64,000 nt of DNA from Giardia intestinalis (lineage: Eukaryota). A program made the translations under genes and the position numbers. Positions 8,427-60,200 of this stretch are shown piece after piece. A model generated the notes under the pieces. It worked only from the letters and a program-made list of their open reading frames with translations. It had not been told where the DNA came from and ran no database searches. The DNA lies in NCBI GenBank assembly GCA_000002435.2, contig CM018793.1. One strand, given 5' to 3'. How positions within the stretch are numbered: the first letter of the stretch is position 1; every line of letters starts with the position of its first letter.

Positions 8427-8516
8427 GGATTACGGATCAACACTGGTATCTTTCAATCAAATCTGAGAAAAAAATCTGAAAAATTTAAAAAATAAAGCTC
8501 GGAAAGAAGGAAGCAG

Positions 8517-8921
8517 ATGGGAAATCCACGCATCGCAGCAGAGCAGTATCTCAAGAAGTACAACATCCCAGACCTTTTTGACTATCTCCTTTCCCAGATA
8601 GTCATCAACCTGCCGGAGGATCCATGGACCCATCTGTCCGAGATATGCGAAAAGCTTGACAGCCGCTCTTTCCAAGACAACATTCCCTTCTTCACGCGGG
8701 ACGAGATCAATATTGTATTCAGCAATTATGAGGTCTTAAACAGGGGTTACATCACAGGCGCCCAGGCAAAGCAGGCACTGAAGACAATGGGCCTTAAGCC
8801 GCGAATAGTAGATGATTTATTCATTGACGACGACGCCAATCTCTCTCGAGAGGAGTTCAGTCAGTATGCCGTCAACGGATTCAACAAGAGGTTGAACTCG
8901 TGGCTGGGGAAGTACCCATGA
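8517..8921 (+). CDS. small DPY-30/RIIa-like dimerisation-docking domain protein (possibly axoneme-associated)
   Basis: Residues 8-45 or so, 'AEQYLKKYNIPDLFDYLLSQIVINLPEDPWTHLSEI', fit the DPY-30 motif (YLxxxVxPxLxxGL...P.DP..FL). ATG preceded by 'aaaaaataaagctcggaaagaaggaagcagATG'. Confidence 0.45.
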   Translation: MGNPRIAAEQYLKKYNIPDLFDYLLSQIVINLPEDPWTHLSEICEKLDSRSFQDNIPFFTRDEINIVFSNYEVLNRGYITGAQAKQALKTMGLKPRIVDDLFIDDDANLSREEFSQYAVNGFNKRLNSWLGKYP

Positions 8922-25324: not shown

Positions 25325-25773
25325 TTTTTGCAATCCTCATAACAGGATGTGAGAGGAGGGGCGATGACTGTGTTGATCCAACCACGTACACTATTGGTCA
25401 ACGCTTCCCAGTGTCACCAGATCAACCGCCTGACAAAATTACAGCTGTATACCTTAATTCCCTTTTGAGAAAGAAAACATTAGGAAGTTAGCAACAACGA
25501 TTGCTCCCACAGAAAACCGCATCAGAGGTGCACGTGCGCTCAAAAAGGCCAAAAAAACAGAATCTTTCGGGCCTCTTTTGGGCCAATCGTTTTTACTGAC
25601 ATGAACAACTGTTAAACGTTGGTGAATAACTAGAAGGCCGCTAAAGATGCGACGATTCACTGGCACGCCACAGCTATAATTTTCTCTCACTATAGGTAAA
25701 AAGATATTGTAAAGCATTACATTAAACCCATCTCTGCGTTAAAAATTAATTATTGGCAGTACTCGGAGGCACC

Positions 25774-28587
25774 ATGTCCTGGTCATCACTGTTCGCGCTT
25801 TTAATTATTGCTATGCATGCTCATGATGAAGTCTGCGCACGCTGCCTTCATGATAAGTGCTTGCAGACGAGGCACGGCAGTGTATGCACTCATTGCGAGA
25901 CTGGATATGTCCCCTTGGAGGGCCGGTGCACCGCCACGGATGTGTCTTTCTGTCTTGTCGAATCAGAAGGGGGAGGTACATGTTCTCAGTGTGCCTATGG
26001 ATATAGAGGCCTCCTAAATGGTTGCTATCCTGTGCCACTGTTTGGAGTGCTTGACGGTAATGTATCTGCTGCCTCAGCCTTTTACATTTCCACTCACGTC
26101 CTTCTTAATGGCCAAATTCTCTTCACGGGGTGCTTTGCAAACAATGAACTGCCCATCAATGGTGTCTGCGCCGAGGACACTGACAATTGGTGTGCTCAAT
26201 CTGGAGAGACTGACTTTAGCTATGGAACGTCCTGTTTGCGGTGCACAGGGACTAATGTGTTCTATTTCAAGGGAGGATGCTATAACACCAAGACAGAGCC
26301 TGGCAGCCTGATTTGCAAGGCAGCTTTGGATGGAGTCTGTACTGCTTGCAATACCGATAGCGGCTACGTGTTCGAGAACCCTAGTACAGGTACGAAGACA
26401 GACCAGTGCATATCATGCGGCGATGGATATGGAGCCGATGGGTACAGTGGCGTTGAAAGTTGTAAAACATGTGTAGCGCCAAGTGGAAATAGCAAAATAG
26501 CTACGTGCTCTGCATGCCCAGATGGCTATAAATTTAACATTGCACACACTCGGTGCTTTAACTGTGCATTGCAGGGGTGCTTAAACTGTGATGGCTACGA
26601 CAGCTGTGAACACTGTGACACCGGCTTCTTTATGGCTGATCAATCGTACAGCAAAATCTGTGTTACGACGTGTCCATCAGGAACGTTCCCGTTTGTCAAC
26701 TCCACTGGATATAATAAGTGTTTCTCGTGCTCAAGTTCTGATGGAAGTGATTCTATAGCTGTAGAGCGCATACCAGGCTGTGAAACATGCGCAGTTGGTA
26801 GTGGCAACCTCCTGACATGCAGCGCATGCCTACAAGGGTATCAGCTCACGCCCACTGGATGCAAACAGGTTTGCGCTGACGTATTAGGGTGCGGTTTAGA
26901 TGCTTGTACTGTTGTCATAGGCTCTATGTCATACTGTTCAAAGTGCAAAAGTACAAATAACTATGCGCCCATAAACGGAGTATGTGAATATGTTTCCATG
27001 AATGATAAGTCTGGTTGCAGAAGAGAAGAAACTATCGCTGGGGTCTGTCCTCAATGCGGTGAGGGGTATTTCCTGCACATGAATGGTTGCTATAAAGCTG
27101 ATCAGGCTCCAGGAAATCTTGTGTGTAGCAGTGTTGGAACTGGTAGTCGATCTCTTAGAAACGCTGGCGCAGGGTTGTGCAGCGTCTGCGGGTCAGGGTA
27201 CCGTGCTAAGCATGGGCGGTGTATATCATGCAATAAACAGCACTGCCTTGAATACATCCCAAACACTTGTGTATGCACGCTATGCGAGGACAACGTTCTC
27301 CTAATTCAGGGGGAGTGCGTTTCGTTTCCCAGTTCCGGGTGCAAGGTGCCCTACTGTGCGCTGTGCGAAAAGAAGCTGGAAGTGTGCACGCGTTGTGAGG
27401 CCAGCTACTATATCACACCCCTGCACGGATGCACAAAGGACTGTGAAGACCTCATGGGATACCACAACAACGCTGATCTGGGCAAATGCGTTAGATGCAG
27501 AATTAGAAACTGTTACAAGTGCTACGATAGCGCTCGCTGCTCAGAATGCTCTACCGGATACGGGCTCACGGACAACCAGCAATGTGTACGGTGCCCCAAG
27601 AACTGCTTTGCATGCGCACATCACAATAAGTGCACGACATGCAAGTCTGGATACATCTTGAGTGACTCCGAAGTATGTGAGTCGGAGGATGAGTATAAGG
27701 TGGATTGCAAACATGCTGACGCTAAATACATCAAGTACGAGTTCGCACGTCATATAAAGGGATCTGTGCGCCAGAGATTAACGGCCTCCATGTGTTCAGA
27801 ATGTAATGCTGGTAAGGTGCCCATAAACGGTAAGTGCGTTTCAGTATCTGCAAAAGCTCCGAGTTGCACGCCTGGGACCGGGGAGAATGCTGGAAAGTGC
27901 ACCCGCTGCATAAGTAGTGGCAGCTCAAATAGTACCTTCCTTTATTCAGGGGGTTGCTACGATAGCAATACTAACGTGGGTAAGTCTCTCTGTGCAAGCG
28001 TTGGCGACAACGGATTGTGCGCCAGGTGCCCACGGGGCGGGTTTATGCTCGACACCAGTCGTAATGAGTGTGTACCGTGTCCCATGAACTGTATGAAATG
28101 TAACTCATCTGGCTGCCTAAGGTGTGATTCTGGCTGGCTGCTTATCGAAAGTGAGTGCGTGCCGTGCAAAAAAGGCTGCCTTGAATGCGGCAGTTCTTCA
28201 GACAAGTGCACAAGTTGCATCACTGGGTACTACGTAGCTGGAGCCACTACGTCATCTGGAAAGGAGGGGATATGCCGTAGGTGTGATGATACACAGGAAG
28301 TAGACGGTTGGAAAGGGATCCAAGGATGCACACTGTGTACACCACCAGTTTTTGCTGGAGAGGTGCTATGTTTGTCCAAAGAAGTGATAGAAGATGTAGT
28401 AACCCGCTCGCTCAGTTCTGGGGTCGTAGCAGGAATCTCTATTACAATAGTAGTTGTGGTTGCAGCGATCGTGGGGGTCCTAGTTTGGAAATATGTTTGC
28501 AAAAAGAAATCATCCAAACGCATCAAAATGGTTGACATGGACGTCAGCATCAATACCAGCCAGTACATGTCCACAAGCACTGTGTAA
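25774..28587 (+). CDS. high-cysteine membrane protein (HCMP; VSP-like ectodomain, non-VSP cytoplasmic tail)
   Basis: The ORF track starts at a TTG (25753); the ATG at 25774 gives the signal peptide MSWSSLFALLIIAMHA. About 38 CXXC motifs. GGCY motifs are present (FYFKGGCYNTK, LYSGGCYDSNT, NGCYKADQ). A single C-terminal TM segment (GVVAGISITIVVVVAAIVGVLVW) is followed by a 30-aa basic tail, KKKSSKRIKMVDMDVSINTSQYMSTSTV, rather than CRGKA. Confidence 0.75.
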   Translation: MSWSSLFALLIIAMHAHDEVCARCLHDKCLQTRHGSVCTHCETGYVPLEGRCTATDVSFCLVESEGGGTCSQCAYGYRGLLNGCYPVPLFGVLDGNVSAASAFYISTHVLLNGQILFTGCFANNELPINGVCAEDTDNWCAQSGETDFSYGTSCLRCTGTNVFYFKGGCYNTKTEPGSLICKAALDGVCTACNTDSGYVFENPSTGTKTDQCISCGDGYGADGYSGVESCKTCVAPSGNSKIATCSACPDGYKFNIAHTRCFNCALQGCLNCDGYDSCEHCDTGFFMADQSYSKICVTTCPSGTFPFVNSTGYNKCFSCSSSDGSDSIAVERIPGCETCAVGSGNLLTCSACLQGYQLTPTGCKQVCADVLGCGLDACTVVIGSMSYCSKCKSTNNYAPINGVCEYVSMNDKSGCRREETIAGVCPQCGEGYFLHMNGCYKADQAPGNLVCSSVGTGSRSLRNAGAGLCSVCGSGYRAKHGRCISCNKQHCLEYIPNTCVCTLCEDNVLLIQGECVSFPSSGCKVPYCALCEKKLEVCTRCEASYYITPLHGCTKDCEDLMGYHNNADLGKCVRCRIRNCYKCYDSARCSECSTGYGLTDNQQCVRCPKNCFACAHHNKCTTCKSGYILSDSEVCESEDEYKVDCKHADAKYIKYEFARHIKGSVRQRLTASMCSECNAGKVPINGKCVSVSAKAPSCTPGTGENAGKCTRCISSGSSNSTFLYSGGCYDSNTNVGKSLCASVGDNGLCARCPRGGFMLDTSRNECVPCPMNCMKCNSSGCLRCDSGWLLIESECVPCKKGCLECGSSSDKCTSCITGYYVAGATTSSGKEGICRRCDDTQEVDGWKGIQGCTLCTPPVFAGEVLCLSKEVIEDVVTRSLSSGVVAGISITIVVVVAAIVGVLVWKYVCKKKSSKRIKMVDMDVSINTSQYMSTSTV

Positions 28588-32889: not shown

Positions 32890-34875
32890 TCAAGAAAGGC
32901 GTCTCTGCGTCAAAACGCCGCGAGGGATTGAGATTGAATGATGAACTGACTGTGCAGATGAGGTCCTGCCATGGCTATTGACGGGACTATTGCTTCGCAC
33001 GTGCTGACATGTACGGTTTATTTGACGAAGCTTTTCAATGCAGCGAGTAACAGAGTCTGCATACTTTAAGGATGCAAACCCCTTGGGGTTCCACTTAGCA
33101 GATTCATATTTCTCATTATAATCTTCCTGGAGTCTTGCCGGGGAAGGATACGAAAAGTGCCGTACGTTTTCCTTGATTATAGAAAAGGCAGAATGCGATC
33201 GTTGTGCAGCACGCTCATCCGGCATATTACGCAAGTCTGTTAAGTTCTGCATTTCTCGGAGCTCTTTAATGGTGCAAAATTCGTCAAACTTCGACAAGGA
33301 TGCTTCCATCTGTGCGGCCAGAACATCCTCATCTCCATCTATAGGAGTGCTGATTCTGGCAACATCAGTAGTGGCCAGACGCTGTGCTCTAGCAGGCTCC
33401 TCACTGCGGGGAGAGCTTGGAGTCGCTGAGAAAGCACGTCTCTTGTCAACAGCTGAATCGGTAGGAAGTGCACATCTTCTATTATAGCGCTCTGGAGAGA
33501 TGTTACTGTAAAGAATGTAGCCCCGCGACGGAGAAATAGGCTCATCAACCAATCTGCTAGATTGCACTTTATTGGCGTGCCTATCCATTGACCTATCGTT
33601 TGAGGCTTCTGGCTCCATGATCCTGATACTGTTTCGGGCAGAAGAATGGGAAGAAGAGTTAATCCGTGGCTTAGCGTCATTGCTATCATCCCCAACTGTT
33701 CTAACAACACTTTCAGTAAGAGGAAGGCTCCGCAAGATGTTAAAGAGGTACTCCAGCGAACATTCATCAATACTCCCAGACCATGATAGCTTGCAAAGAA
33801 GCTGCTTCAACTCGTCACAAGTTTCAACCCTAAAAAGAAGCTTTCTAGCTATATCGCTGGGCACGTACAGTTCCCTTTTCAAATCATCCGACAAAATATC
33901 TTTGAAACAGGGATTACGGAGGAGTTGAGATGCTCTAGGTCGAGCGGCTGGGTTTATGGTCAGCATGGCCTCCACCAGCTTAACTAACTCAGAGGATCTC
34001 CCCGGCAAGCATATGCCGAAACGATTTTCTCCCGAAAAGTATGCCTTTTGGACATCGGTATTGGGGAAAAGGCGCTCCGTAGTGGCCATCTCATAAACAA
34101 CGCATCCAAGAGCCCAGATATCATTCTCCACCCCAGCTACAGAATAGTACGCTTCAGGAGCCCTGTATCCTGGCGCTCCAGCAAAGCCCGACTCCTCTGT
34201 GTTAGTAACGTAGTCAAGGGTAATGTTCTTCAACTGCCTCAGCTCCTCTTCATCAAACTGTGCCGCCATAGTAAAGTCTGCTAGCTTGATGTTATTATCG
34301 TAGTCCAACAAGATGTTATCTGGCTTGATGTCACGGTGGGGTATGGGGAAGTGAATACGTGCACTGTCCACGGTACCCTGATCATCTTCTGTGTTGCCAG
34401 ATTTGTCGTCTATGCAGCTTGGCCGTCTACTGGTCGATCTGGAAAGTAATTCAGGGATTTTGTACCATGCTTCTGTCGATGGATCGTGCAGATAATGCAG
34501 AGCACTGAGAAGTTGGTACGTGTACTTCCATATGTCTGCCTCAGGAATGGGTTCCCTGCGTCTGCGGTGGCTCTGAATAAGCTTCTTGAGAGAGTATTTC
34601 ATGAGAGGCATAATAATATTGATTGTTTGCAGCCTGCTGTCAATGACGACTTCCCGTACGGGGAGGATGTATGGGTGATGGAATCCCTGCATTAGGTAGC
34701 CCTCCCTAGACATCCCATAGTACTCCTTGCTGTCTCGGTCAATATCGCCATAATAGATAATTTTGACCACCAACTCCTCTCCAGTCGCCCTATCCATGCA
34801 ATGGTGTATCTTTGCCTGTGTTCCCATGCCAATCATTGCCGCTACGTCATACTTTAAGGCGATTTTGCTCTGCAT
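32890..34875 (-). CDS. atypical Ser/Thr protein kinase (DFG replaced by DFT; large insert before the catalytic loop)
   Basis: The ORF track starts at a TTG (34890); the ATG is at 34875 (MQSKIALKYDVAAMIGMGTQAKI...VVKI). Catalytic loop 'HRDIKPDNILLD'. 'KLADFTMA' stands in place of DFG. 'APGYRAPE' is present. A hydrophilic insert of about 45 aa lies between 'LHYLH' and HRD. The C-terminal 300 aa are S-rich and low-complexity. Confidence 0.6.
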   Translation of the reverse strand: MQSKIALKYDVAAMIGMGTQAKIHHCMDRATGEELVVKIIYYGDIDRDSKEYYGMSREGYLMQGFHHPYILPVREVVIDSRLQTINIIMPLMKYSLKKLIQSHRRRREPIPEADIWKYTYQLLSALHYLHDPSTEAWYKIPELLSRSTSRRPSCIDDKSGNTEDDQGTVDSARIHFPIPHRDIKPDNILLDYDNNIKLADFTMAAQFDEEELRQLKNITLDYVTNTEESGFAGAPGYRAPEAYYSVAGVENDIWALGCVVYEMATTERLFPNTDVQKAYFSGENRFGICLPGRSSELVKLVEAMLTINPAARPRASQLLRNPCFKDILSDDLKRELYVPSDIARKLLFRVETCDELKQLLCKLSWSGSIDECSLEYLFNILRSLPLTESVVRTVGDDSNDAKPRINSSSHSSARNSIRIMEPEASNDRSMDRHANKVQSSRLVDEPISPSRGYILYSNISPERYNRRCALPTDSAVDKRRAFSATPSSPRSEEPARAQRLATTDVARISTPIDGDEDVLAAQMEASLSKFDEFCTIKELREMQNLTDLRNMPDERAAQRSHSAFSIIKENVRHFSYPSPARLQEDYNEKYESAKWNPKGFASLKYADSVTRCIEKLRQINRTCQHVRSNSPVNSHGRTSSAQSVHHSISIPRGVLTQRRLS

Positions 34876-34972
34876 TGGCTTCTGTTGCAACTTTTTTACC
34901 CTTTGATTTACTGACTTTCGTTGTAAGCGCCCAAAAGACTTGTCGCCCAGGCTGATACTTCCCTTTGACGAA

Positions 34973-40049: not shown

Positions 40050-40276
40050 CCCGGACCTCTGTAAACGGCGCTCTTTAACGATGGGCTTTCCACTTCTACT
40101 TTTAACTTTTCTGTGCCCATAGGTTGGTATGAACACCTTTATCCACAAGCAGTGAGAATGCTCAAACGAACGTCTGGGATATTGAAGCTAATTAACACTG
40201 AAACTTAATTAATCTTCAAAATCACAAGGCCGAGGAAACTTAGAGGCTTGGCGAGAGTATACTGGTTGTTCCGTAC

Positions 40277-40302
40277 TTTATCTAGGCTTATTTATCTAGG
40301 CT
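40277..40302 (+). repeat. tandem direct repeat (TTTATCTAGGCT x2, period 14) immediately 5' of the kinase ATG
   Basis: 'acTTTATCTAGGCTtaTTTATCTAGGCTcttaggggtaATG'. Confidence 0.6.
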
Positions 40303-40312
40303 CTTAGGGGTA

Positions 40313-43069
40313 ATGAGCAGACCTGGCTTGTATATAGGGCAAGTTATTTACAACTACCGAGTCTTAGAAAAGATTGGTACGGGGAGGTTTGGGACTGTCT
40401 ATCGCGTCCAGAGAGTGGGTACAAACAAGCTTTTTGCACTGAAATACATAGACCTCAAAATGAGCACAGAGAAAGCCAGAAGGCTGCACATGCGCGAACT
40501 ACAGTTACTGCCGTATCTTAAGCATCGCAACGTCATAAACTGCTGTGAGGCACACTTAGACAACAATATGACCGCGTATTTGTTCATGGAGCTTGCAATT
40601 AGCGATTTGAGTAGCCTCTCTAGGACGTGTGCAGCGGCCTATGCACCTGATTATGAACAGCATATCTGCAGAATCATTGCTGACGTAGCTTCTGGGCTGC
40701 ACTACCTCCACACCTATCATACCATGGAAGCTGTCTGTGGACAACCAATCGCTGGGCCCACACCAACAAAGATAGTTCACCGCGACATCAAGCCCGAGAA
40801 CCTCCTTCAGATGGCCGACGGCACAGTGAAGATAGCCGATTTTGGAATCATTGGGCAGTTGAATGTAGAGGAGATGCTCTCCACAGGAGTCGGCACAATC
40901 CGGAACTGTGCGCCAGAGATCTTCAAGCTTCTCAAGTACACAGAGAAGATAGATATATGGGCTCTGGGATGCGCCATTTATCGGTTTTGTCATGGGACTG
41001 ATATCTTTAGTCAGCCCCAAAAGGCCACTACGCTGTCAAGGGTGCGGGAAAGCATGCTTCAGCAACATTCTGCCCTGGCCGACGGAAGAATAGCCTTTGA
41101 GTTTCGCGGTTTTTCTCAAGAGCTATGCAATTTAGTGAAGAGCATGTTTGCCATAGATCCCAGCCAGCGTCCCAGTGCCTATGAGATTCTTTGTCATCCT
41201 CTTATTAACAGGTGGGTGTACAGAGAACGCTATCTGGACTATAACATCCACAATGACATCCCAGCAATCGCCGGTTATCACGACTTTCATTTAATTGAAT
41301 GTACACATAACAGCAATATCTATAAAGCAGTATCTAGTCACACAAGGCAGCCTGTGGTGGTAAAGCGGATTCAATTAGAAGACTCTGGGCATGCTCGCTA
41401 TTTGCAAGATGTTGAACTGCAAATTAGTAGAGAGATCGCCAAAGGGACGTGGAACAATCTTCTTGGTACCATATTGGATGTAATAGATCCGATAGAAGTG
41501 CATCCTGGGTGCCAAGAGGCATACATAGTTATGGAATACTATGAGCGGGGAGACTTGAACGAATACTGCAGAGTAGCAAATATAACAAACGAGCAACTGG
41601 CAGAAGATTATATTTTAGTGATTATGGCTTCCATTCTGGAAGCCTTGGCATTTCTTCATACACCGAACGCTGCACTTAATAAGCCTGCTATTATTCATAA
41701 AGACGTTAAGCCAGGTAACATCCTCTTGACCTCATTTGGTAGCGTGGTACTCATTGACTTTGGATCCGCCACCGAATTGGAAGGCGACTTTCATGAGAGA
41801 GACGACTTCATTACAGGCTCATTGATGTACATGGCACCAGAGTTGTTGCGAGGAGAAAGATATAACGAAAAGGTTGATATCTGGTCTCTCGGAATGACTG
41901 CCTTGTTCCTTTGCGAAAGCCACTATCTAGTTGTTGGATCTACGGCCGGCGCAATACTAAGTAGCATAGAGAGTATATTTCGTAGTGACTATAGGATACC
42001 AAGTAGATATAGTGATGGGCTTAACTCCTTGATCATGATGATGCTCCAATGTGATGTGCAGGAACGACCCTCGGCGCAGGCTCTGTTGAAGCACCCTCTG
42101 ATTGCCGCTAACAGACCAAACTCTTCAGTGGACAGACACGGGAAGTGTCCAGTGATTCGTGCCATCGAAGCTCGTAAGGAAATAACACACTCCTTAGCGA
42201 CACGCTATCCAGACACAGTGGATTCCTCAGGGATGTTTGCCTTAGCGCATGCTGCAAAGTACTGGGACTCAGCCGCCATTCGCATCCTATTGGATATCCA
42301 GAAGAAGATGGTGACACTTCACAAGCAATTCACACCCCTAATGGTATTTCTCTTATCATTACAACTATCTCGTGAGAAAGATGTGGTGAGCAATCTCGAA
42401 AAGATTGAGGAGTGCTTTGAACTTTTAGTACCCTCATTTGCTCGACTTCAAGATGCAACGGGGTATACAGCCCTCATGTGGACTATCCGTCTATATACGC
42501 AGATTAAAGAATCCGGCACACCAGAATCAACTACCTGCGAGGTGCTTCTGAAGTTTATTCCGCGGCTTATCCAAATGGAGCAAGGGGTGGTTCGATCGAC
42601 TGGAGGCACGGCTCTCATGTTAGCCGCGGAGCTGGGATGTCTCGAGGCCGTTGAAGAGTTTGTCCGTATGAACGCAGAGCTCGGCATGCAGAAGCCCAAT
42701 GGAGTCACGGCGCTAATGATTGCAATCAGAAAAGGGCATAACAGCATCGTCAATCTTTTGGTTGAGCGGGAGCACTCACACACAGTAACTGATCCTCCAG
42801 GGTTCACCGCCCTCATGCTCGCTGTGTTGGCCCAGAACACTAAGGCGGTGGAGCGCCTACTGGCATTCGAGGCACAGAGGGCAACAAACGACGGGGTGAC
42901 CGCATTGATGATCGCCGCGGAGATAGGCAAGTCGGAAATACTCGATCTTTTAGCTCCAGCAGAATACGGCCTACTAGACAAAAACCACAATACAGCCGTG
43001 GACTATGCGTGTAGTAATGAAGTGGGGATTTATCTACAGAGATATGCCAAGGGTGATAGTAACCTATAG
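40313..43069 (+). CDS. NEK-family protein with tandem kinase domains (the second degenerate) and C-terminal ankyrin 'TALM' repeats
   Basis: Domain 1 has GTGRFGTV, ALKYI, HRDIKPENLL, DFGI and APE, so it looks catalytically competent. Domain 2, at about aa 320-600, has VVVKRI, 'IHKDVKPGNILL' (HRD replaced by HKD, no Gly loop), DFGSA and MAPELL. The C-terminal 300 aa carry five or more ankyrin units (GYTALMWTI, GGTALMLAAELG, GVTALMIAIRKG, GFTALMLAVLAQ, GVTALMIAAEIG). Confidence 0.7.
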   Translation: MSRPGLYIGQVIYNYRVLEKIGTGRFGTVYRVQRVGTNKLFALKYIDLKMSTEKARRLHMRELQLLPYLKHRNVINCCEAHLDNNMTAYLFMELAISDLSSLSRTCAAAYAPDYEQHICRIIADVASGLHYLHTYHTMEAVCGQPIAGPTPTKIVHRDIKPENLLQMADGTVKIADFGIIGQLNVEEMLSTGVGTIRNCAPEIFKLLKYTEKIDIWALGCAIYRFCHGTDIFSQPQKATTLSRVRESMLQQHSALADGRIAFEFRGFSQELCNLVKSMFAIDPSQRPSAYEILCHPLINRWVYRERYLDYNIHNDIPAIAGYHDFHLIECTHNSNIYKAVSSHTRQPVVVKRIQLEDSGHARYLQDVELQISREIAKGTWNNLLGTILDVIDPIEVHPGCQEAYIVMEYYERGDLNEYCRVANITNEQLAEDYILVIMASILEALAFLHTPNAALNKPAIIHKDVKPGNILLTSFGSVVLIDFGSATELEGDFHERDDFITGSLMYMAPELLRGERYNEKVDIWSLGMTALFLCESHYLVVGSTAGAILSSIESIFRSDYRIPSRYSDGLNSLIMMMLQCDVQERPSAQALLKHPLIAANRPNSSVDRHGKCPVIRAIEARKEITHSLATRYPDTVDSSGMFALAHAAKYWDSAAIRILLDIQKKMVTLHKQFTPLMVFLLSLQLSREKDVVSNLEKIEECFELLVPSFARLQDATGYTALMWTIRLYTQIKESGTPESTTCEVLLKFIPRLIQMEQGVVRSTGGTALMLAAELGCLEAVEEFVRMNAELGMQKPNGVTALMIAIRKGHNSIVNLLVEREHSHTVTDPPGFTALMLAVLAQNTKAVERLLAFEAQRATNDGVTALMIAAEIGKSEILDLLAPAEYGLLDKNHNTAVDYACSNEVGIYLQRYAKGDSNL

Positions 43070-43111: not shown

Positions 43112-45205
43112 CTAGATAGGGGTGGAGTAGAAGTTCCTTATAACTGAGATAACATGCTCAAGCTCTCTTAGCGTGCTATCATAGAGAGCAAGATCAGTTT
43201 GCAACACCGTGAGCTGAGAGTCATTAGTTTCGATTAGAGTGTCAACAGATACGTCTATGGCCGAGTTAAACGACTCGCCTTGCAAGAGATAAGGGGCCAT
43301 GCTTTTGTAAAGCGCGGAAAGCTTATTAGATATCAACGAGGAAAATACATTGGGTGCCATCACTTCCCGTTGCTTCAGCAGAGTATGCGTATCTACAACC
43401 CACCCATCCAGCTGGGCCACCTTGATGCCCTGCACAATCCCTGTACCTCTATCGAGCTTGAGATGTGGGTTAGCGGTACCGCCGAGCTTTGTGACTCCAG
43501 AAGGTGTCAGGTATGCGTCTGTCATGTGGTCATTGATGATCCTTTTTGAGAATATCGATTTGAGGCTCTCTTGATAGCCGTCAATACGTGCCAAAAACGA
43601 GTCCAAAGCATCAAAAACTTGATTCTGGACCTCCCAATTCCTTGAGAGACAGGTTTTAGTGAACATGGATGTGAAAAAGTGTCTTTTGGAGTGATTTAGA
43701 AGCTTAAATAATTCATACACGGATTGGATGCAGTCAACAGAATCCCTCAATTGATGTGAGTACAGTCCTGGTAAGATATCATCACTGTGGGCCACATGAG
43801 AAATCACTTTTCGGTGTCGGTGCTCCTCTGTCACCATTCTCTCTGAGACAGAGTCCTGACTCAAGGGGATTGTTGCACCTGTTCTTATTATTTCCTTAAG
43901 GCGCATCAGCACTGCACTACTAGAAGACCCCTGCTCAAGCTCTCTGATTGCCAAAGAGTGCGCATACATGTCTCTGAAAGATGTAATCGCAGACAAGGAT
44001 GAATAGGTGTCTAGGGAAGCATGAATATCACTGAAAACTTTCCATATCCCATCCAGCTTTTCAGTGAGTAATTGCCTGTGCTCTTCTCTACCAGAACTCG
44101 TTACAGTAGCCTCTATTTTCTTGTTGGTTCGCTGAATAGTATCAGTAAGGTATTCTATCTGTTGCAATTGGTTTTCTGTTTTCTGTCTAAGTGTGTTTGT
44201 TTTGTTCATAGCTGATACTAGCTCGTCAACAAGGCGCTTTGTTCGACGACCGCAATTCTCAAGCTCTCTGCTGTGGTCCTGCAAAAACGAACTGCACCGT
44301 TGTAACCCGAAAACCTCTGCCTTCAGGAGAACTGCGCCTAGCTGTGGTGTCTTTGTCATCAAATGCTTAATAACCTGAGATGTGATGTTTTCTGGGGCCA
44401 GTTCAAAAGACTCATTACAATAGGTTAGCAAAAGGTCGTTTTCACGCATGCGCAGCAGATCTAGCTCAGCTAGTATTGCTTCTCCCTCCTTAATGTTACG
44501 GAGCGTTGCCTTGTACACGAATCCTAAGCGCGGATGAGTATCTGGGTAGGTCTCATTAGACTCTTCAAAGACCTCTTCATCGTCTCGAAGAAATACCTTA
44601 AGTTGGTGAATCGCTGACTCTATCTCACTCTTGAGTTGACGGAGGAGGGTGGCAAGCCGATGCTTGGTGCTCATGGTGAACTGTCGTGTAGCCTGCTCCT
44701 GTGCAGACAAAAGGTCACGCTCAGAAGTTGCTGTCTCAGATAAATTGGTAGAATCAACCAGAGCCGACCCACATGCGCCTCGAAAAGCGTTCAAGGATTG
44801 CACAATTCCATCTAAAGCCTCATTGACCCTTGTTAGATGGACAATTTTAGTTAGTTGGTTTCGTGTGCTTTCTTCGCTCTTTGCATATGTATCTGTGTCC
44901 ACAAGTACAGACTGCACTAGCTCAAGGAGTTTGGATGGCTGCTCTCCGACTGACATTTGAGTAGACGCGTTCGTGGCAGCAATCTTTTGCTTTTGGAGCT
45001 CCATGATGCGGAAAATCTTTCGAATGCGTGTATACTCGCCCGGGCTAACAGTGTGACGCATCAGCTCTTCCTGAAAGCTCTCATTTGATGCTGAAAGGCA
45101 ATCAAAGTTCTTGGGATGCGGCCGTAGCCTTTCGTCATGCGGAGCATAGCCGAGATCCTTCGTCAGCCAAGTATGAAACTTGATGGATGCCGGTGTGGCA
45201 CACAT
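43112..45205 (-). CDS. hypothetical protein (697 aa); partly coiled-coil
   Basis: ATG at 45205 (plus-strand 'cat' at 45203-45205) with 'ttttaattccacaccaaATG' on the coding strand. Convergent with the kinase gene across a 42-bp gap. Confidence 0.4.
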   Translation of the reverse strand: MCATPASIKFHTWLTKDLGYAPHDERLRPHPKNFDCLSASNESFQEELMRHTVSPGEYTRIRKIFRIMELQKQKIAATNASTQMSVGEQPSKLLELVQSVLVDTDTYAKSEESTRNQLTKIVHLTRVNEALDGIVQSLNAFRGACGSALVDSTNLSETATSERDLLSAQEQATRQFTMSTKHRLATLLRQLKSEIESAIHQLKVFLRDDEEVFEESNETYPDTHPRLGFVYKATLRNIKEGEAILAELDLLRMRENDLLLTYCNESFELAPENITSQVIKHLMTKTPQLGAVLLKAEVFGLQRCSSFLQDHSRELENCGRRTKRLVDELVSAMNKTNTLRQKTENQLQQIEYLTDTIQRTNKKIEATVTSSGREEHRQLLTEKLDGIWKVFSDIHASLDTYSSLSAITSFRDMYAHSLAIRELEQGSSSSAVLMRLKEIIRTGATIPLSQDSVSERMVTEEHRHRKVISHVAHSDDILPGLYSHQLRDSVDCIQSVYELFKLLNHSKRHFFTSMFTKTCLSRNWEVQNQVFDALDSFLARIDGYQESLKSIFSKRIINDHMTDAYLTPSGVTKLGGTANPHLKLDRGTGIVQGIKVAQLDGWVVDTHTLLKQREVMAPNVFSSLISNKLSALYKSMAPYLLQGESFNSAIDVSVDTLIETNDSQLTVLQTDLALYDSTLRELEHVISVIRNFYSTPI

Positions 45206-45234
45206 TTGGTGTGGAATTAAAAAGTATTCCTTTA

Positions 45235-46713
45235 ATGAATGTTGAGCCTAGCAGGGCCTCAACTGCTTCATATGTGCGTCTAGTAAAACTATATACCCGT
45301 AGCCTTGAAAGGTGTGCCAAAATAGGAAGTATGTTTCCATCTGCTACGATAGTTTCTATGTGCCTGAAATGTGCTAAAATACTCGAAACTCTCAAATTAT
45401 CACATTCCGGACATACACCGGCTTCTTTTTGTGAGGCCCACACGGTGGACGATGCCTGCGGTGTCCAAGATTCATATGCAGTTGCCAGGCCTTTATATGA
45501 TTTTCTATTCAAGTTGTTAGAGATTGCATCTCAGGTGAGCGATAGTGAACATGCAAGAATGCAATTGAAGGGTATATTAGATAACAGGGAAAACAGATCA
45601 GCATCAGAAATTAGAGACAATCTGCAGCGTATATTATCCTTACCTCAACAGCCATGTGCGCCTCCTACAGAGGCGATATGCATTGCATTATTGGCTACTA
45701 AAGATATCAATCAAATGGCTTTTCAAATTGAACAGAATTTCGATCAACAAATGGCAGACCTCTATACACTGATGCGCGCCGGCAAGGCCACCTCTACTGA
45801 GGTTGAGGACTTTCTTAATGGAGAACGCAACCACTCTAATTTCCGGTTTTATATACTTTTATGCACGTACATAAGCACGGCGGGATTGACTGTCAAAATC
45901 AATCAACGAACCGGGACTTTGGTGCAGTGGAAGACCGCCCTGATTGATGCAGCAATCAATAATGACCCCGAACAGGTATACGCGCACCACGACAAGCTAT
46001 TTCAACAGAGCCAAGAGTGGATAGATCTGGCTGCCAATGGGGGGTCACACAAAGATCATGTCAAGCTGTCGTCTTTCAATTTAACTGCCTTGATGGCCGC
46101 TGCGTGGTATGGTCACATCGAGTGTGTAAAGCTTCTCTTGGCGGAAATGGGCCTGCAGGACAAGCTGGGGTATACCGCGCTAATGATGGCTGCACAGAAT
46201 GGAAGCGTAGACGCAGCCCTACTCCTTCTGGCAGAGGCAGGGTTTTCTGATGAGTCTGGGTTTACGGCACTGATGGCTGCTGCCTCCAACGGGCACACAG
46301 AGATTGTAGCTATGCTGGCAAGCAGGGAGTCTCGCATGCAAAACAAGGATGGGTCGACCGCCCTAATGCTAGCAACATCCAGGAACAATATCGACGCAGC
46401 ACGGATTCTTGCAGAATATGAGGCAGGGATGTGTGATAACGACGGCATGACTGCTCTGATGATAGCATCTGCTAATGGCTGTCTCCAAATTGTCGGGCTC
46501 TTATACCCAAAAGAAATAGGGCATCGTGACAAGTCTGGCTGGACAGCAATGATATGGGCTGCCCAGCGATGTGCATATTGGTGTATGAAGCTCCTTCTCC
46601 CTTATGAAGGAGAGATCAAGGATAACACGGGAAAGAGCCCAATGGATCATGTAATATGTTCCTCTCATGGAAAGCCTTTAGACAAACAACGGTGTCTTTT
46701 TCTTCTCGTCTAA
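45235..46713 (+). CDS. ankyrin-repeat protein of the Giardia 'protein 21.1' type
   Basis: The ATG at 45235 (MNVEPS...) carries the initiator 'ggaattaaaaagtattcctttaATG'. The upstream ATG at 45187 would overlap the divergent gene. Six or more ankyrin units carry TALM: LTALMAAAWYGH, GYTALMMAAQNGS, GFTALMAAASNGH, GSTALMLATS, GMTALMIASANG, GWTAMIWAAQ. Confidence 0.65.
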   Translation: MNVEPSRASTASYVRLVKLYTRSLERCAKIGSMFPSATIVSMCLKCAKILETLKLSHSGHTPASFCEAHTVDDACGVQDSYAVARPLYDFLFKLLEIASQVSDSEHARMQLKGILDNRENRSASEIRDNLQRILSLPQQPCAPPTEAICIALLATKDINQMAFQIEQNFDQQMADLYTLMRAGKATSTEVEDFLNGERNHSNFRFYILLCTYISTAGLTVKINQRTGTLVQWKTALIDAAINNDPEQVYAHHDKLFQQSQEWIDLAANGGSHKDHVKLSSFNLTALMAAAWYGHIECVKLLLAEMGLQDKLGYTALMMAAQNGSVDAALLLLAEAGFSDESGFTALMAAASNGHTEIVAMLASRESRMQNKDGSTALMLATSRNNIDAARILAEYEAGMCDNDGMTALMIASANGCLQIVGLLYPKEIGHRDKSGWTAMIWAAQRCAYWCMKLLLPYEGEIKDNTGKSPMDHVICSSHGKPLDKQRCLFLLV

Positions 46714-54243: not shown

Positions 54244-57200
54244 TCACTGGTTCAGCGCTGCAAACAAGGCTACGCCGCGCTTGGTCCACTTGGCACTTTC
54301 GTCGGCTTGAATCGGTAAATCCACGGGCATGATGAAATTGGTGCTGTGTCCTGTCGTACTCAGGACACCAGCGCGCGCAAGAGTTCGGTATGCAGGGCAC
54401 CGATATATTCTACGAGCAACCTCGGGGTCGACATCCTTCCCTTGCTCATCTGGAAGGAAGTGGATGACCGGCATCCGTGAATACAGCTCGCGAGAGTATG
54501 ATTCCTGGATAGTGCTGGTTTCCATGCACCACCTGGCCCCCTCCATATAGAGTCCGTAAACGTAACACCCATCTGTGTTTGAGCGGTGCAAAGCTTCTAC
54601 ACGAGTGTTGAGCTCTGGGCCTTCGTTGAGGAAGTTGGTTGTGTTTACCATTACATTGCTAATAGTAAATCTAAAGATGAGCTTATCGATTGCAATGACA
54701 TACTTTCTAGCAAAGTTCTGCAAACAGCCGGTCAAGAAGCCCTGCGTGAAGAAGAAGCCCGAGATCCAGAAGCAGATTGGAATCCCCTTCTCAATCCAGA
54801 CATTGATGAAGGATATCCGGTCCAAGAGGTCAATATAGTACGAAGCAAGAGGCTTGAGGCATGGATAGCTATATTTAAGCCACAGTGCTGGGGTTTTGTT
54901 GTTCGACAGGTTATCCGCCAGCTCTTCAAGCTCGGCGTTCATGACGGAGAAGCCCCGAATTGCCTTTTGTAGGTCTTGGAGAGACTTCTTGATATTTATA
55001 AGCAGCTTGTTATACCTCATACATTCTTGAACAAGAACAGTGTTGAACGACTCTTCATAACGCGTGGGATACTTCAGGCTGACCGCCTCAACGTCGAAAA
55101 GGTCGGGGCAGCGGTCTAGGAGCCCCTGGGCTTGATCGAGGAGAAGAACGTTTTTGTCATTTCCGGTGGAATTCTGGGAACTGTCTTCGGCGTCTCCGTC
55201 TTTGGTGTCTTTATTGTCTTTTGGTTGCAGCTTAATCAGGTCATTCAGCATGGCCTGCACAGCTTGATTATCGCAGGTTATGGCTGCATTCATGTGGAGG
55301 CCAAAGATTTCTGGTCTGGGGTCGTTGGGAATCTGCTCTCGGATACACTCCAGATAGTCCTTATAGTTTAGATTGTCTGGAAGCTGTTTGATCGAAACAA
55401 TCTCTGTGTCGTTCATCCGACTAAAGTCATAGCCCTCCACAAGGGCTTCGTCTGAAAGGTAGTCGTTAAGGATGGTAGTCAGACACCTCTCGTCGTTATA
55501 GTCTGTTACACGCCCGCAGTAGTTTATCTTTCCGAAAAGAAACTGGAGGACGTTGTACGGCACCGAAGTGTACGAATCAATGAAGAGACCTAGCTGTTTA
55601 AAGCACATGTCAAGATCGCCAGACGTGAAGTCGTAGGAGATGTTATATCCGAGCGGGCCAAATTTGCGCCTCTCCTGAGTGACAGCATGAAAGACCGACA
55701 TGGAGAAGGTAAGCTTCTTGAAGATCTGAATCTTTGTCGGATCGCCAGACTGTATCGTCTCGTTAAGAATTTTATCGTTCAGGTTGCTGTACGTTCTAAG
55801 CACATTGTTACGCATCCCGAGGGCGGCTTCGTTTGTCATTTTAACGGAGTTCTGCAGAATAGAGACAGGGAATTGTTCGCTGGGCATAGAGGTGAGCCAC
55901 AGCCTGAAGTCGCGATGAATATTTGAGGGATCGGAGCTTAGTTGTTCAATAATCTTGTCTAGCTCTGGCATCCACGAGACCGCCAGGTGGCAGTTCATGA
56001 GAATGATCCACGAGCCCCGCTCGATACCTTGAGTAATCAACTGGCTTGCTATCGCTCCCTGTCCTTGGCCCAGAGAGATGGACTGCATCTTTCGGCTCAT
56101 CCTCATTTCGTCTGCGAAGCGGAAAAGGTCGGCCATGGGATCTGATCCGCTACTCAAAATGAAGAGCAGGGGCGTAACATTGTTGGAGTCCTTAAAGGAG
56201 AGCTCTAGATTGAAGAGTTGCGGTTCGTTAAAGCGTGGTCCAAGCTCCTGCTCTATGTATATACGAGAGTACGCGATAATCTTGTCTGGACGAATGCACA
56301 TGAGTGGTAGAAACCGCTGGAAGGGAGTGAGTGCGTCTTGGTATGGCTGTGGGATTGGAAGCGTCTCGGGTTGTGAACTCTCAAACATTCGCCTCCAGAT
56401 AGCCTGGTTTTCTTTGTTGGCAAACGTATTAGAAAAGCCTTTGAAAGTACCTGAAACGTTGTCCAGATCACATATGTTGATCCAAGACCTCTCACTGAGC
56501 CATTCGGGGCACGGGTTAGGCTTTGGGGCCGTTGCAGACGCAGACCCAATAAGCAGATATCGAAGCTCGTTGGTGTTGAGGTCTCCGGCATGGTGCTTTA
56601 TGCGTATCGCTACTAGCACGGCGAAAAGAAGCTTATGGACTTCGAAGAGAGACCTGCAAATAGTGGTGTAAAGGTAATAGGTAAAGTGATCAATCAAGTT
56701 CTCTAAGCGTACACTCAGCTCGTCGGCCTGCTCAGCGTCAGCTATTGCTTGGACAAAAAGACTAACGTACCACTGCAAGGAGTATTGGTACATGCTGTCG
56801 ATGTTCGCCATATCACAGCAGCAGAAGTACAGGATGCTAGCACGCGTGGCAACAGGGCGGTACAGCTCGCGCGTGACATCAATCTCTTTTTCGGTCTTTT
56901 CAGACTCGGCAACCTTCGTCGCGATTTCCTGGCTAGTCTTCTGAGACTGCGATAGCGTCTCTATCAGTGTTTCGTCCGACAGGATATCGCCCGTAGACTC
57001 CGAGAGAAGCCTGAGGATCGTTGCCTCAAGGGACTTGAGCTCCTGACGCATTCGACTGTTGCTTATGACAAGCTGGCTCTTCATGCTTTCGAGGTCCTGG
57101 CGTTCTCTGTTCACGACGGTGGCCAACAGCTGCTCCTCAAGCCCGGACTCGTTGATGGCAAAGTTGAGGGTTAGGACCTTGACTGCGTTTTCTGGAGAGT

Positions 57201-60200
57201 ATTTTGGGTTTGGCAAGCTTGTGACAAGGTAAACCCTGAAGTTCGGATTATATGGAATAATCTGGTCTCCTAGTTTTATCACCACAGTGTTCCCATCCTT
57301 GTAAACTTGCTTCTGCAGAATTCCGTCAAGTGCAGGGTCGATCTCCTCCAAGAGATTGACGATCATAACCGGCTTGCCAAAGCGCAATGCATTCTCCATG
57401 GTTCTGAGGAGATCTTTGTCGCTTGCTTTGCAAACTGTGAGCGAATTGTCCTTCTCCATGTTACGGACGAACTTCATGCCCTGGCCCTGTGGGTCAATGA
57501 GTAGTGGATACTTGTCACTATTGTACATAAAAAGAGCGTTCTCTATCGAGTGATTATCCGAGGGCAATCCGTTGACATGGAAATGCTGAATTTCAACCTC
57601 GTCAGAAAGTATCTCCTTCAGGTTTAAGTGTTCTCCTGTAGAGCGCGGTATGTTCAGCTCATCAATGAACTTAATCCAGCTCTGGGCAATCTTTGTTCTG
57701 AACTGCGATGTAAATGCGCCGAGGTAGACGATGCATCCAGCAGAGAACAGACAGTCTCCGAGGATGGAGCTCAGCTTCTTGTCCATGTCGGCCATAGCCT
57801 GCGTCCAACGATCCTTTTCTCCGCCAAGCCCACTTATCAGCTTTTCAGCCCTCTCGAGTTTCAGCCCTGTCTCCTCAACCTGGCGAGTAAGGTCCTCCTT
57901 CTTTTCAACAGCTGCCGAGAATTGCGCTTCCAGTTGGGCAATCTTATTTTCAACGGTATTTAGCTCATCCACCAGCTTATCCAGGTTCTGCTGGACAATT
58001 GTTAGCTCTCCCTCTGCTTCGGCAAGCTTTTGACGTTTAGGCTCGACCTGTTTCGCCACGTGATAGTACTTGTTCATAGCGTGCACCCAGGAACACATCG
58101 CCATGGCGGCCTTGGACTTCTTCTCAATCTCCTTCGGAACAAATTCTGGGTCAACAATATACTTTTGAATCTTCTTTATGATGTCTGGTTTGATGTTATC
58201 TCGATCGTAGTTCATAAGCTTGTCTAGAAGACCACGAGGATCCGAAAGTAGCTTTTTGCTAGGGTCCCAATAATCCTCGATAAACTGGCCTGGCTTATCC
58301 TTGTCTTGAACGCGATTGCCCTTGACGCCGAAGAATTGACAGACCGCTTCAAGGACCAACTTGACACCGTAGGGTGGGCTAGTGTAGTGTCCAATTTCAG
58401 AGAGATCTGAAACCTTCAGGGACTTAAGCGCTTCGAGAGCAGCTTCGAGGGCGGGAATTGCCTCTGCCAAATCGCGCTCAGCATCATTCTTGATAGCTTC
58501 ACACTCGTCGCGCTTCGCTGCAGCAATTTGTTTCTCCTTCGCGACAACTTGCCTGGTCTTATCGGCTTCTGTTTTGTCCTTATCAAGATCAACCATCATG
58601 GCCTCCACCTCTGTCTGCGTCCGCTCAAGGACGGGTTGGAGCGCAATGAGATCTTCCTGCATCTTTGCAACCATAGTTTGTGTGTCCAGAAGCTTGTGCA
58701 GCCCAGATTTAAGTTGCATCTTGTACTCATTAACCTTGTTGTACTGGGCCTGGAGAACGCGTGCAAAGGTGGATAAGAGCGTAAGATAAAGAGTTGGGGT
58801 GATATGATTTAGACGTCCTGACTCTTCCTTGTACCTCTTGGACCAGGTTTCGATAGAGATATGGAATCGCATGCATAGCTTGATAATTGAGTTCTGTAAG
58901 AGGGTCTTTTTCTCCTTCCTCTTAGTCTCATCTAGCTCCATCCCAGACTGCTCGTCCAGATAAGCATTGAGAAACTCGGATTGCGGAGAGTCTGGGAAGC
59001 ATGTCACACCCTGTTCTATTAAAGCATAATTATAGACACTGCGACCAACGTCGATCAGCGCCTCATCTGGCCATCCTGTGAACCAGTCCAGCGTGCAGCA
59101 ATTGACCAGAGATGGGAAGTTCCGAAGGCGTGTTCTGAGTGCTGCAGACGGACTGAAGGTCAGAACCAAGTGGATATTGGCCTTGACCCGGGTAAGATAC
59201 GCATCAAAGAGGGCTATCTTTGTAGGCTGGAGGCCCTTCTCCATACACAGTGGTCGTACGGCTGCGAAGATTGTCTCCATATCGTTTAGGTCATAGAGGT
59301 TCTGGATGTCAGCAGTGTTCAGGATTGCGTTGATATCTTCCACCATCGCCTCGTTGACAATCATGGAGTCTGTAAAGAGGAAGACAATCTGCTTATTGTC
59401 TACACCAGCAGTCATCAGAATCTTCTTCAAGTCATCGCGCCATTCTGGTATCCCGTAGTTCTTTCGTAGTTCAATTGTGTGTAGATCATACTCGGCAAGA
59501 AAGGCGCTAAGACGCGCCAGGCTACTACGACCAGAGCCCCCAAGGCCTATCAGCAAGCAGTTTCCACCGGGTTGGCGCAAAATGCGTGAGATCCTGCTTA
59601 GGTGCGAGATGGCATCCCTGAACATAACGAGGTTCATCTGCTTGCTGTTCTGATCGTTATAATCGTTGAGAGTGTCTGAAAGAACATGAGAAAGAGCAGG
59701 TATATCAGTAATTTCTTTGTAAGGCCGAATTGCCTGCTGTGGATTAGCAAAGTTACCAAAAAGAAGAGTGTCTGGGTGCTTGCCCTCTAAGACGTCCTTA
59801 TCCAGATCACGGTTAAAGAAGTTGCTTGTCTGCTTTGTCAAAAGCTTCTCAAACCAATGCCTATCGTGGTCATCGACCAAACGATCGTAATACACTCGCA
59901 TGTTCTCGTGGATCCAGAGTCTGATTAAGTTCTTCTCAACATCAGCGATAGAATAGGGGACGGTGGATCCATCATTGCTGAGCTTAGCGACAACGCTGAG
60001 AGGGTCTATCATGAGGATGCCCTGGAACACTTTAGAGAGATCGCGCAGATTGAAAACATAGTGGGACTTCTCTGGAGTTGGCAGAAGTTCCGCCCTTGCA
60101 CTGTTGTACACACTGAGAGAAGCGTCAACAAGAATCTGGCACCGCTTCTTCACCTCGTCAGCCAGGTCTGCTGCCGACGCCGTTGTGAAGGATCTGCCGG

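Follow-up and report, generated by a model that had tools for sequence, protein, structure and literature searches.

Two Nek-like kinase domains in tandem in the Giardia intestinalis protein GL50803_95003: a canonical first domain and an atypical second domain with conserved catalytic residues

Nek-like proteins make up about 70% of the Giardia kinome. To our knowledge, the Giardia Neks are mostly presumed dead and almost none of them has been characterised. Giardia Nek-ankyrin kinases (Manning et al. 2011; renamed in the 2025 re-annotation PMC12538575 as non-core PKs with interaction domains, 'Int-ncPKDD') have an N-terminal Nek-like kinase domain followed by TALM-type ankyrin repeats. In this study, we analysed GL50803_95003, a gene located in a 64,000-nucleotide window of Giardia intestinalis DNA (assembly GCA_000002435.2, contig CM018793.1). 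Its product shares this plan, but differs from the other Nek-ankyrin kinases by having two kinase domains in a row, named D1 and D2 here.

RSK and MSK contain an N-terminal AGC effector domain, a C-terminal CaMK domain and a phosphorylatable hydrophobic motif in the linker. As in GL50803_95003, both of their kinase domains are catalytically complete and the conventional effector is N-terminal. However, RSK/MSK combine an AGC with a CaMK domain, whereas both domains of the Giardia protein are Nek-like, and we identified no docking or hydrophobic motif of the RSK type in GL50803_95003. The JH2-JH1 pair of JAKs likewise combines two kinase folds in a single chain, of which one is canonical and the other has a degraded Gly-rich loop (PMC4718504). 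The atypical domain comes first in JAKs, whereas it comes second in GL50803_95003. JH2 keeps Gly50 and Gly52 (PMC4718504), while D2 keeps neither but has the full catalytic triad. Moreover, JAKs are tyrosine kinases with FERM-SH2, in contrast to a Nek-like protein with ankyrin repeats. Another comparison is Toxoplasma WNG1, a Ser/Thr kinase fold that has no glycine-rich loop, keeps the VAIK Lys, HRD Asp and DFG Asp, and is an active kinase (PMC6442604). WNG kinases and GL50803_95003 belong to unrelated lineages; the beta1 strand and the loop are wholly gone in the former, whereas D2 is predicted to keep a beta1-turn-beta2 hairpin and to have lost the glycines alone. Human NEK2 (e.g. 2W5A) is the best solved-structure match for each domain, and an insertion before the HxD catalytic loop is common to both domains. 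Nevertheless, identity to NEK2 is only about 28-30%, the N-lobe of D2 does not align with it, and GL50803_95003 has ankyrin repeats instead of a coiled-coil tail.

The tandem architecture of GL50803_95003 is not new; it was catalogued before, though solely in a supplementary table. Among the rows of Table S1 of Manning et al. 2011 (PMC3218828) considered here, the gene is GK218, classified as Nek-Unclassified with 1:1:1 orthologs and scored as having an active triad and 5 ankyrin repeats. Its row already carries the comment 'Dual Kinase Domains', which only one other Nek (GL50803_115786) shares among the WB-sheet rows listed. The serial analysis of gene expression (SAGE) values given there are R 1.93 and a maximum of 5.1, and the differential-expression category is left empty. 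In the WB sheet of this table, the D2 sequence of GL50803_95003 sits in the 'Additional Kinase Domains' cell of another row, adjoining G279 / GL50803_6624, and the cell in its own row is empty. Apparently the spreadsheet was mis-sorted, and anyone working from the table could be misled. The main text of the 2025 kinome re-annotation (PMC12538575) does not mention GL50803_95003 by name. What is new here is modest: conservation in Giardia muris, selection on each domain, and an argument from the residues that the 'pseudo' label on D2 is unwarranted.

We found that the region is gene GL50803_95003 of G. intestinalis assemblage A, strain WB. It is a single-exon gene with one uninterrupted open reading frame (ORF) and a coding sequence (CDS) of 2757 nt, and the protein encoded in the window is 100% identical to G. 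intestinalis WB XP_001707397.1 (UniProt A8BEP3). A scan of the whole protein with Pfam identified Pkinase in two stretches (E 4.4e-92) and several ankyrin families; the families other than Pkinase were Ank only. The domain order is a Nek-like RD (Arg-Asp) kinase D1, a 24-residue linker, an anciently diverged Nek-like D2 and about eight TALM-type ankyrin repeats (Table 1), which agrees with the kinase-then-TALM-ankyrin architecture described for Giardia Neks (PMC3218828 section 17). The repeats comprise five exact TALM, one TPLM and two degenerate copies. The original prediction of two kinase folds in one polypeptide, followed by at least five TALM repeats, was borne out. Taken together, we propose with a probability of roughly 60% that this dual-kinase Nek-ankyrin protein combines a conventional RD kinase D1, regulated through Thr191, with an atypical D2 that probably binds nucleotide and is weakly active or regulatory, and with an ankyrin tail that targets or scaffolds the protein.

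Table 1. Coordinates of GL50803_95003 and its features in the window (aa, amino acids)
Feature	Residues (aa)	Window coordinates	Strand	Remarks
Complete CDS GL50803_95003 ('Kinase, NEK')		40313..43069	+	ATG-to-stop ORF, 918 aa plus stop
Kinase domain 1 (D1), canonical RD kinase	15-297	40355..41203	+	Pkinase E 1.3e-51
D1 Gly-rich loop GTGRFG	22-27	40376..40393	+	glycines invariant including G. muris
D1 beta3 lysine in FALK	K44	40442..40444	+	read by coordinate from translation
D1 catalytic loop HRDIKPEN	156-163	40778..40801	+	G. muris counterpart HRDITLSN
D1 DFG	176-178	40838..40846	+	G. muris counterpart DFD
D1 activation-loop threonine	T191	40883..40885	+	residue-level alignment to NEK2 T175; invariant in all orthologs including G. 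muris
Inter-kinase linker, INRWVYRERYLDYNIHNDIPAIAG	298-321	41204..41275	+	24 residues, no Ser/Thr, three Tyr
Kinase domain 2 (D2), atypical non-RD, without loop glycines	322-597	41276..42103	+	Pkinase E 1.2e-40
D2 Gly-loop equivalent ECTHNS	329-334	41297..41314	+	G1->E, G2->T, G3->S
D2 beta3 lysine in VVVK	K351	41363..41365	+	invariant including G. muris
D2 alphaC glutamate	E368	41414..41416	+	invariant including G. muris
D2 catalytic loop HKDVKPGN	462-469	41696..41719	+	H, D, K, P, N invariant
D2 DFG	482-484	41756..41764	+	invariant
D2 acidic residue at NEK2 T175 position	D498	41804..41806	+	NEK2 alignment; D or E in all six orthologs
Ankyrin-repeat region, about 8 repeats	640-914	42230..43054	+	Ank_2 E 2.3e-37 (aa 612-918 alone)

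Scanned alone, both halves of the kinase region scored far above the Pfam Pkinase gathering cutoff of 31.7 bits, with 175.9 bits for D1 (aa 1-309) and 140 bits for D2 (aa 310-611). D1 contains the full set of motifs, namely the Gly-loop, the beta3 Lys, the alphaC Glu (E62), HRD-x4-N, DFG and APE (aa 200-202), as had been predicted. Human NEK2 was its best solved-structure match over the whole length of the domain (E 1e-26).

The second domain had been described as a degenerate one that lacks the Gly-rich loop, has HKD in place of HRD and keeps the lysine, DFG and APE. The motifs themselves were read correctly, with APE at aa 508-510. Every G. intestinalis lineage carries ECTHNS, and RDAIGV stands at the same place in G. 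muris; D2 lacks the canonical GxGxxG loop in all of them. However, the residues do not fit the label 'degenerate'. K351, E368, H462, D464, K466, N469, DFG, APE, D522 and R585 of D2 are invariant in all lineages including G. muris. In the HxD motif, most lineages have K in the middle; one lineage has R there, and G. muris has N. Because just the non-catalytic Arg is altered, and this residue varies among orthologs, HKD is best regarded as a non-RD variant and not as a loss or a sign of decay. The lost loop glycines are the one true defect of D2.

Whether D2 is called a pseudokinase depends on the definition. For Giardia, a pseudokinase is a domain in which K72, D166 or D184 is missing (PMC3218828 section 12; PMC12538575). 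Since K351, D464 and D482 are present and invariant, D2 is not a pseudokinase by this criterion. A wider definition requires only that any conserved nucleotide-binding or catalytic motif is missing, Gly52 included (PMC4718504). D2 falls within it, with Thr331 at the Gly52 position, and the 'pseudo' label is defensible under this wider definition only.

We also considered an artefact, in which an assembly mis-join or an annotation fusion has combined two adjacent Nek genes, since Giardia has about 200 Nek genes, a compact genome and short intergenic regions. We found no evidence in support of it. The orthologs from assemblage A (WB, DH), E (P15), B (GS, BAH15c1) and two further lineages are all 918 aa without indels, and most pairs of these lineages are saturated at synonymous sites. 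The conservation check across assemblages A, B and E that the original prediction proposed thus had a positive outcome. The same ORF recurs in independent assemblies of WB, DH, P15, GS and BAH15c1, and numerous read-run assemblies contain it too. In 5/5 G. intestinalis lineages with DNA compared, the CDS length is an identical 2757 nt and the neighbouring genes are the same: upstream, a DUF4471 protein and a 535-aa protein; downstream, a 697-aa protein encoded on the opposite strand, and an ankyrin protein. No Met occurs from aa 279 to 406, so a separate D2 protein would have no start, and the Giardia polyadenylation-like signal AGTRAAY does not occur within the CDS. The linker shows 0-0.11 non-synonymous differences per non-synonymous site (pN) against 0.59-0.97 synonymous differences per synonymous site (pS), the synonymous sites being saturated; it is translated and constrained. 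Shared length, synteny, the linker under purifying selection and the missing internal signals refute a mis-join or fusion, and the G. muris protein is collinear as well. We regard an artefact as extremely improbable.

To place the fusion in time, we searched 1.84 billion representative proteins exhaustively with aa 1-610. One collinear match across both domains was obtained, TNJ27763.1 of G. muris (query 7-593 to 2-573, E 2.3e-73). This protein, annotated 'Kinase, NEK', has 793 aa and contains two Pkinase domains followed by TALM-ankyrin repeats. A neighbour-joining tree of 34 kinase domains grouped the G. muris D2 with the G. intestinalis D2 (97% bootstrap) and D1 with D1 (69%). The collinear ortholog and the pairing of like domains in the tree therefore indicate that the kinase-kinase-ankyrin fusion is ancient and older than the separation of G. 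muris from G. intestinalis. A recent origin of D2 by internal duplication was rejected, since D1 and D2 share only 28% identity and do not form sister groups in the tree.

In TNJ27763.1 (P0338 in our comparison), D1 (aa 8-280) is off consensus at three conserved positions, and D2 retains every catalytic residue. The changes are the catalytic-loop Lys to Thr (HRDITLSN), DFG to DFD and the alphaC Glu to Gly. As judged from these residues, the polarity in G. muris (D1 altered, catalytic residues of D2 kept) is opposite to that assumed for WB. The two further lineages, L003 (ERR3333383) and L004 (SRR17450160), 6001-8757, come from public read runs; each shows about 79% identity to assemblages A and B in this gene, and they form one group with 85-87% bootstrap. 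One of them has HRD, not HKD, in D2. They are probably other G. intestinalis assemblages.

The kinase class of each domain was examined separately. The top solved-structure match of D2 was human NEK2, aligned in the C-lobe only (E 6e-26), followed by PAK and MST. NEK2 is thus the top PDB match for D1 and D2 separately, in agreement with the note of Manning et al. and with the 'Kinase, NEK' annotation, and the predicted Nek assignment is supported by this similarity. The nearest relatives, found partly in the exhaustive search, were the complete Nek-ankyrin protein XP_001708041.1, its G. muris ortholog TNJ29136.1 and insect Nek2; the nearest complete Neks are labelled P0005 and P0371 in our homology comparison. 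XP_001708041.1, a single-domain Nek-ankyrin protein, is the nearest paralog and is 35% identical to D1 and 33% to the C-lobe of D2. The original prediction raised the question whether D2 groups with pseudokinase Neks; it does not, and its nearest relatives are catalytically complete Neks. In the tree, both domains were placed within the Giardia Neks, next to the clade of non-Giardia Neks, a placement that has no bootstrap support. STE20 membership of D2 was rejected; the STE20 clade (99%) excludes it. Searches of a word-indexed protein database with D1 alone and D2 alone returned generic kinases of about 30% identity ('Nek, STE20 and Aurora-like'), and the full-length orthologs were not among the matches. 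Two other multi-kinase proteins were noted: P0443, a 737-aa protein from a read-run assembly of a eukaryote, carries a tandem of two canonical Nek-like domains but lacks ankyrin repeats, and P0337 (2027 aa) has four PAK-like kinase domains in one chain.

Next to this classification we compared divergence of the two domains. Identity between WB and P15 is 94% for D1 and 85% for D2, and between WB and GS it is 83% and 77%, respectively. The published averages for WB-P15 and WB-GS are 92% and 84% for core kinases and 88% and 78% for Neks (PMC3218828), and the identities of D1 and D2 bracket them. The ratio of non-synonymous to synonymous rates (dN/dS), obtainable from two unsaturated lineage pairs only, was 0.041 for D1, 0.091 for D2 and 0.025 for the ankyrin core (aa 761-900) between WB and P15, and 0.033, 0.060 and 0.061, respectively, in the second pair. 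The non-synonymous rate of D2 is about twice that of D1. These values show that both kinase domains are under strong purifying selection and that D2 is far from neutral.

The predicted structures were examined with AlphaFold2 and Foldseek. Modelled alone, D2 folds as a bilobal kinase (predicted local distance difference test, pLDDT, 84.4; predicted template-modelling score, pTM, 0.83) and retains the beta1-turn-beta2 hairpin at ECTHNS. The D2 model matched Aurora A/TPX2, MST1/2, PAK1, phospho-CDK2/cyclin A and NEK2 (E about 1e-17; target-normalised template-modelling score, TMt, 0.70-0.81), and these partners include active-state kinases. Both domains are true protein-kinase folds. In the model of aa 1-610 each domain folds, with pTM 0.55 and a linker pLDDT below 50 (aa 303-316). 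Because MAFFT had aligned almost every single-domain homolog with D1, the D2 half of the two-domain alignment was shallow. Foldseek aligned both domains of this model in order to JAK1 and EGFR-KDD, with a query-normalised score (TMq) of 0.36-0.37 and a root-mean-square deviation (rmsd) of 21-26 A; for JAK1 (7T6F), TMq was 0.37 and rmsd 25.7 A, with the shallow D2 half underlying it. These two-domain matches were no better than single-domain matches.

The reading that we favour can be put as a mechanism. We read the need for activation-loop phosphorylation from the general distinction between RD and non-RD kinases. D1 would act as the conventional substrate-directed kinase and, as is usual for HRD kinases, would be switched on by phosphorylation of Thr191, the equivalent of NEK2 Thr175. 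D2 should need no activation-loop phosphorylation, since it is non-RD (HKD, HND or HRD) and the phosphosite position is always occupied by an acidic residue. Its catalytic residues were kept over deep time while the N-lobe drifted and the loop glycines were lost, and for this reason D2 most likely still binds nucleotide. It would then be either a low-activity or specialised kinase, for example one that primes or activates D1 in cis or in trans, or an allosteric partner that works on D1 in a nucleotide-dependent way. For the ankyrin tail, localisation or scaffolding of the protein is the most likely role, in line with proposals made for other Nek-ankyrin proteins of Giardia.

The original prediction favoured a different role, in which D2 is a dead pseudokinase that regulates an active D1 allosterically within one chain, as JH2 does with JH1 in JAKs (PMC4718504). 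The loss of all three loop glycines speaks for it, given that Gly52 is critical for nucleotide binding (PMC4718504). So does the pattern of divergence: the N-lobe of D2 is the most divergent part, with 22% identity to G. muris against 35% in the C-lobe, and the doubled non-synonymous rate points the same way. Non-catalytic folds are also common in the family, with 71% of Giardia Neks classed as inactive (PMC3218828). However, K351, E368, D464, K466, N469, DFG and APE are kept in every lineage, a degree of conservation that would be difficult to account for if the active site were not under selection. D2 is 'active' by the Giardia triad criterion, its nearest relatives are complete Neks, and the G. 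muris substitutions at conserved positions fall in D1. The analogy with JAKs itself fails on domain order and kinase class, as the order is reversed and both domains are Ser/Thr Nek-like without FERM-SH2, and it gains no support from the structure model (pTM 0.55), in which no confident interdomain packing was seen and the match to JAK1 has an rmsd above 20 A. We therefore consider a dead, JAK-like D2 doubtful, though still worth weighing.

Two further explanations give D2 catalytic activity. In a relay of the RSK/MSK type, both domains would be active, the C-terminal D2 would phosphorylate and activate D1, and D1 would act on substrates. Both domains have the full set of catalytic residues, D1 is an RD kinase with a conserved Thr191 at the NEK2 Thr175 position, and the non-RD D2 with its fixed acidic residue should not need its own activation-loop phosphorylation; the placement of the effector N-terminally and the atypical domain C-terminally matches the RSK order as generally known. 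Against this, the WB linker has no Ser or Thr and the hydrophobic-motif step is impossible, the domains are not of the AGC plus CaMK kind, and D2 may not bind ATP without the loop glycines. In G. muris, moreover, D1 is less canonical than D2, a poor fit with D1 as the universal effector. A relay of this kind seems unlikely to us. Similarly improbable, in our estimate, is that D2 is an active non-RD kinase without loop glycines like WNG1, serving as the conserved engine or priming kinase, with D1 as a regulated or, in G. muris, partly degenerate partner. The likelihoods that we attach to the favoured reading, the JAK-like model and the RSK-like relay overlap and are not meant to sum to one, because the dead-D2 model overlaps the 'allosteric partner' branch and the relay overlaps the 'priming kinase' branch of the favoured reading. 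Both are sub-cases that are inseparable by sequence.

Several points weigh against the favoured reading of D1 as a conventional kinase and D2 as an atypical, probably nucleotide-binding domain. Literature searches found no functional study and no biochemical, localisation or phosphoproteomic data on GL50803_95003. PKA Gly52, the second loop glycine, has been called a critical nucleotide-binding residue (PMC4718504). Since Thr331 stands at this position and the first glycine is Glu, D2 may bind ATP poorly or not at all. The function of atypical kinase domains is not predictable from sequence alone (PMC4718504). The model of aa 1-610 has no confident D1-D2 interface, a weak negative given the shallow D2 half of the alignment, and intramolecular regulation is therefore unsupported by the model. 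Synonymous sites are saturated in most lineage pairs, which restricts the dN/dS values to two pairs. As the linker has no Ser or Thr, RSK-style linker phosphorylation is excluded in WB. The deep nodes of the tree are unsupported, so the 'Nek' membership of D2 rests on best-hit similarity, and the 2025 re-annotation doubts Nek membership of most Giardia 'Neks' (PMC12538575).

We also identified other features of the window. Directly upstream of the GL50803_95003 start codon, at 40276-40305, there is a 12-nt tandem duplication (TTATCTAGGCT plus one base). It is found in WB only, with a single copy in P15, GS and two further lineages, and could reflect a change specific to this strain in the promoter and 5' region, which are very short in Giardia. 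A 666-aa kinase is encoded at 32890-34890 (-), and its gene is also located upstream of GL50803_95003 in all Giardia lineages examined. It has two Pkinase stretches, the best-scoring of which covers the C-terminal half of the profile only; this is probably one domain split by an insert and not a second tandem kinase. Downstream, the 508-aa ankyrin ORF at 45187..46713 (+) overlaps the opposite-strand 697-aa gene by 19 nt (45187-45205) at the latter's 5' end. Because its orthologs are called at 490-491 aa, the real start of this gene is probably a later Met.

Two additional ORFs lie further away. The 944-aa ORF at 25753-28587 (+) has a match to the variant-specific surface protein (VSP) family of Giardia (E 1.9e-56). 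The 3178-aa ORF at 54244-63780 (-) encodes a dynein heavy-chain motor (AAA1-AAA6, stalk and C-terminal domain) and begins inside DHC_N2, with profile positions 359-402 at residues 2-45. Because the ORF begins within this region, the N-terminal tail of the dynein must lie elsewhere or in a separate gene.

GL50803_95003 is one of only two dual-kinase-domain genes noted among the rows of the 2011 catalogue listed. With a D2 that is glycine-less, triad-complete, conserved in the genus and fused to a canonical kinase, it could serve as a test case for the reliability of the rule that 'KDD present' means active. Cooperation between tandem kinase domains outside animals and plants is another question on which it could shed light. 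If the reading with an active D2 is true, it would reverse the polarity assumed in the original prediction, and the Nek family would gain its first described intramolecular two-kinase relay.

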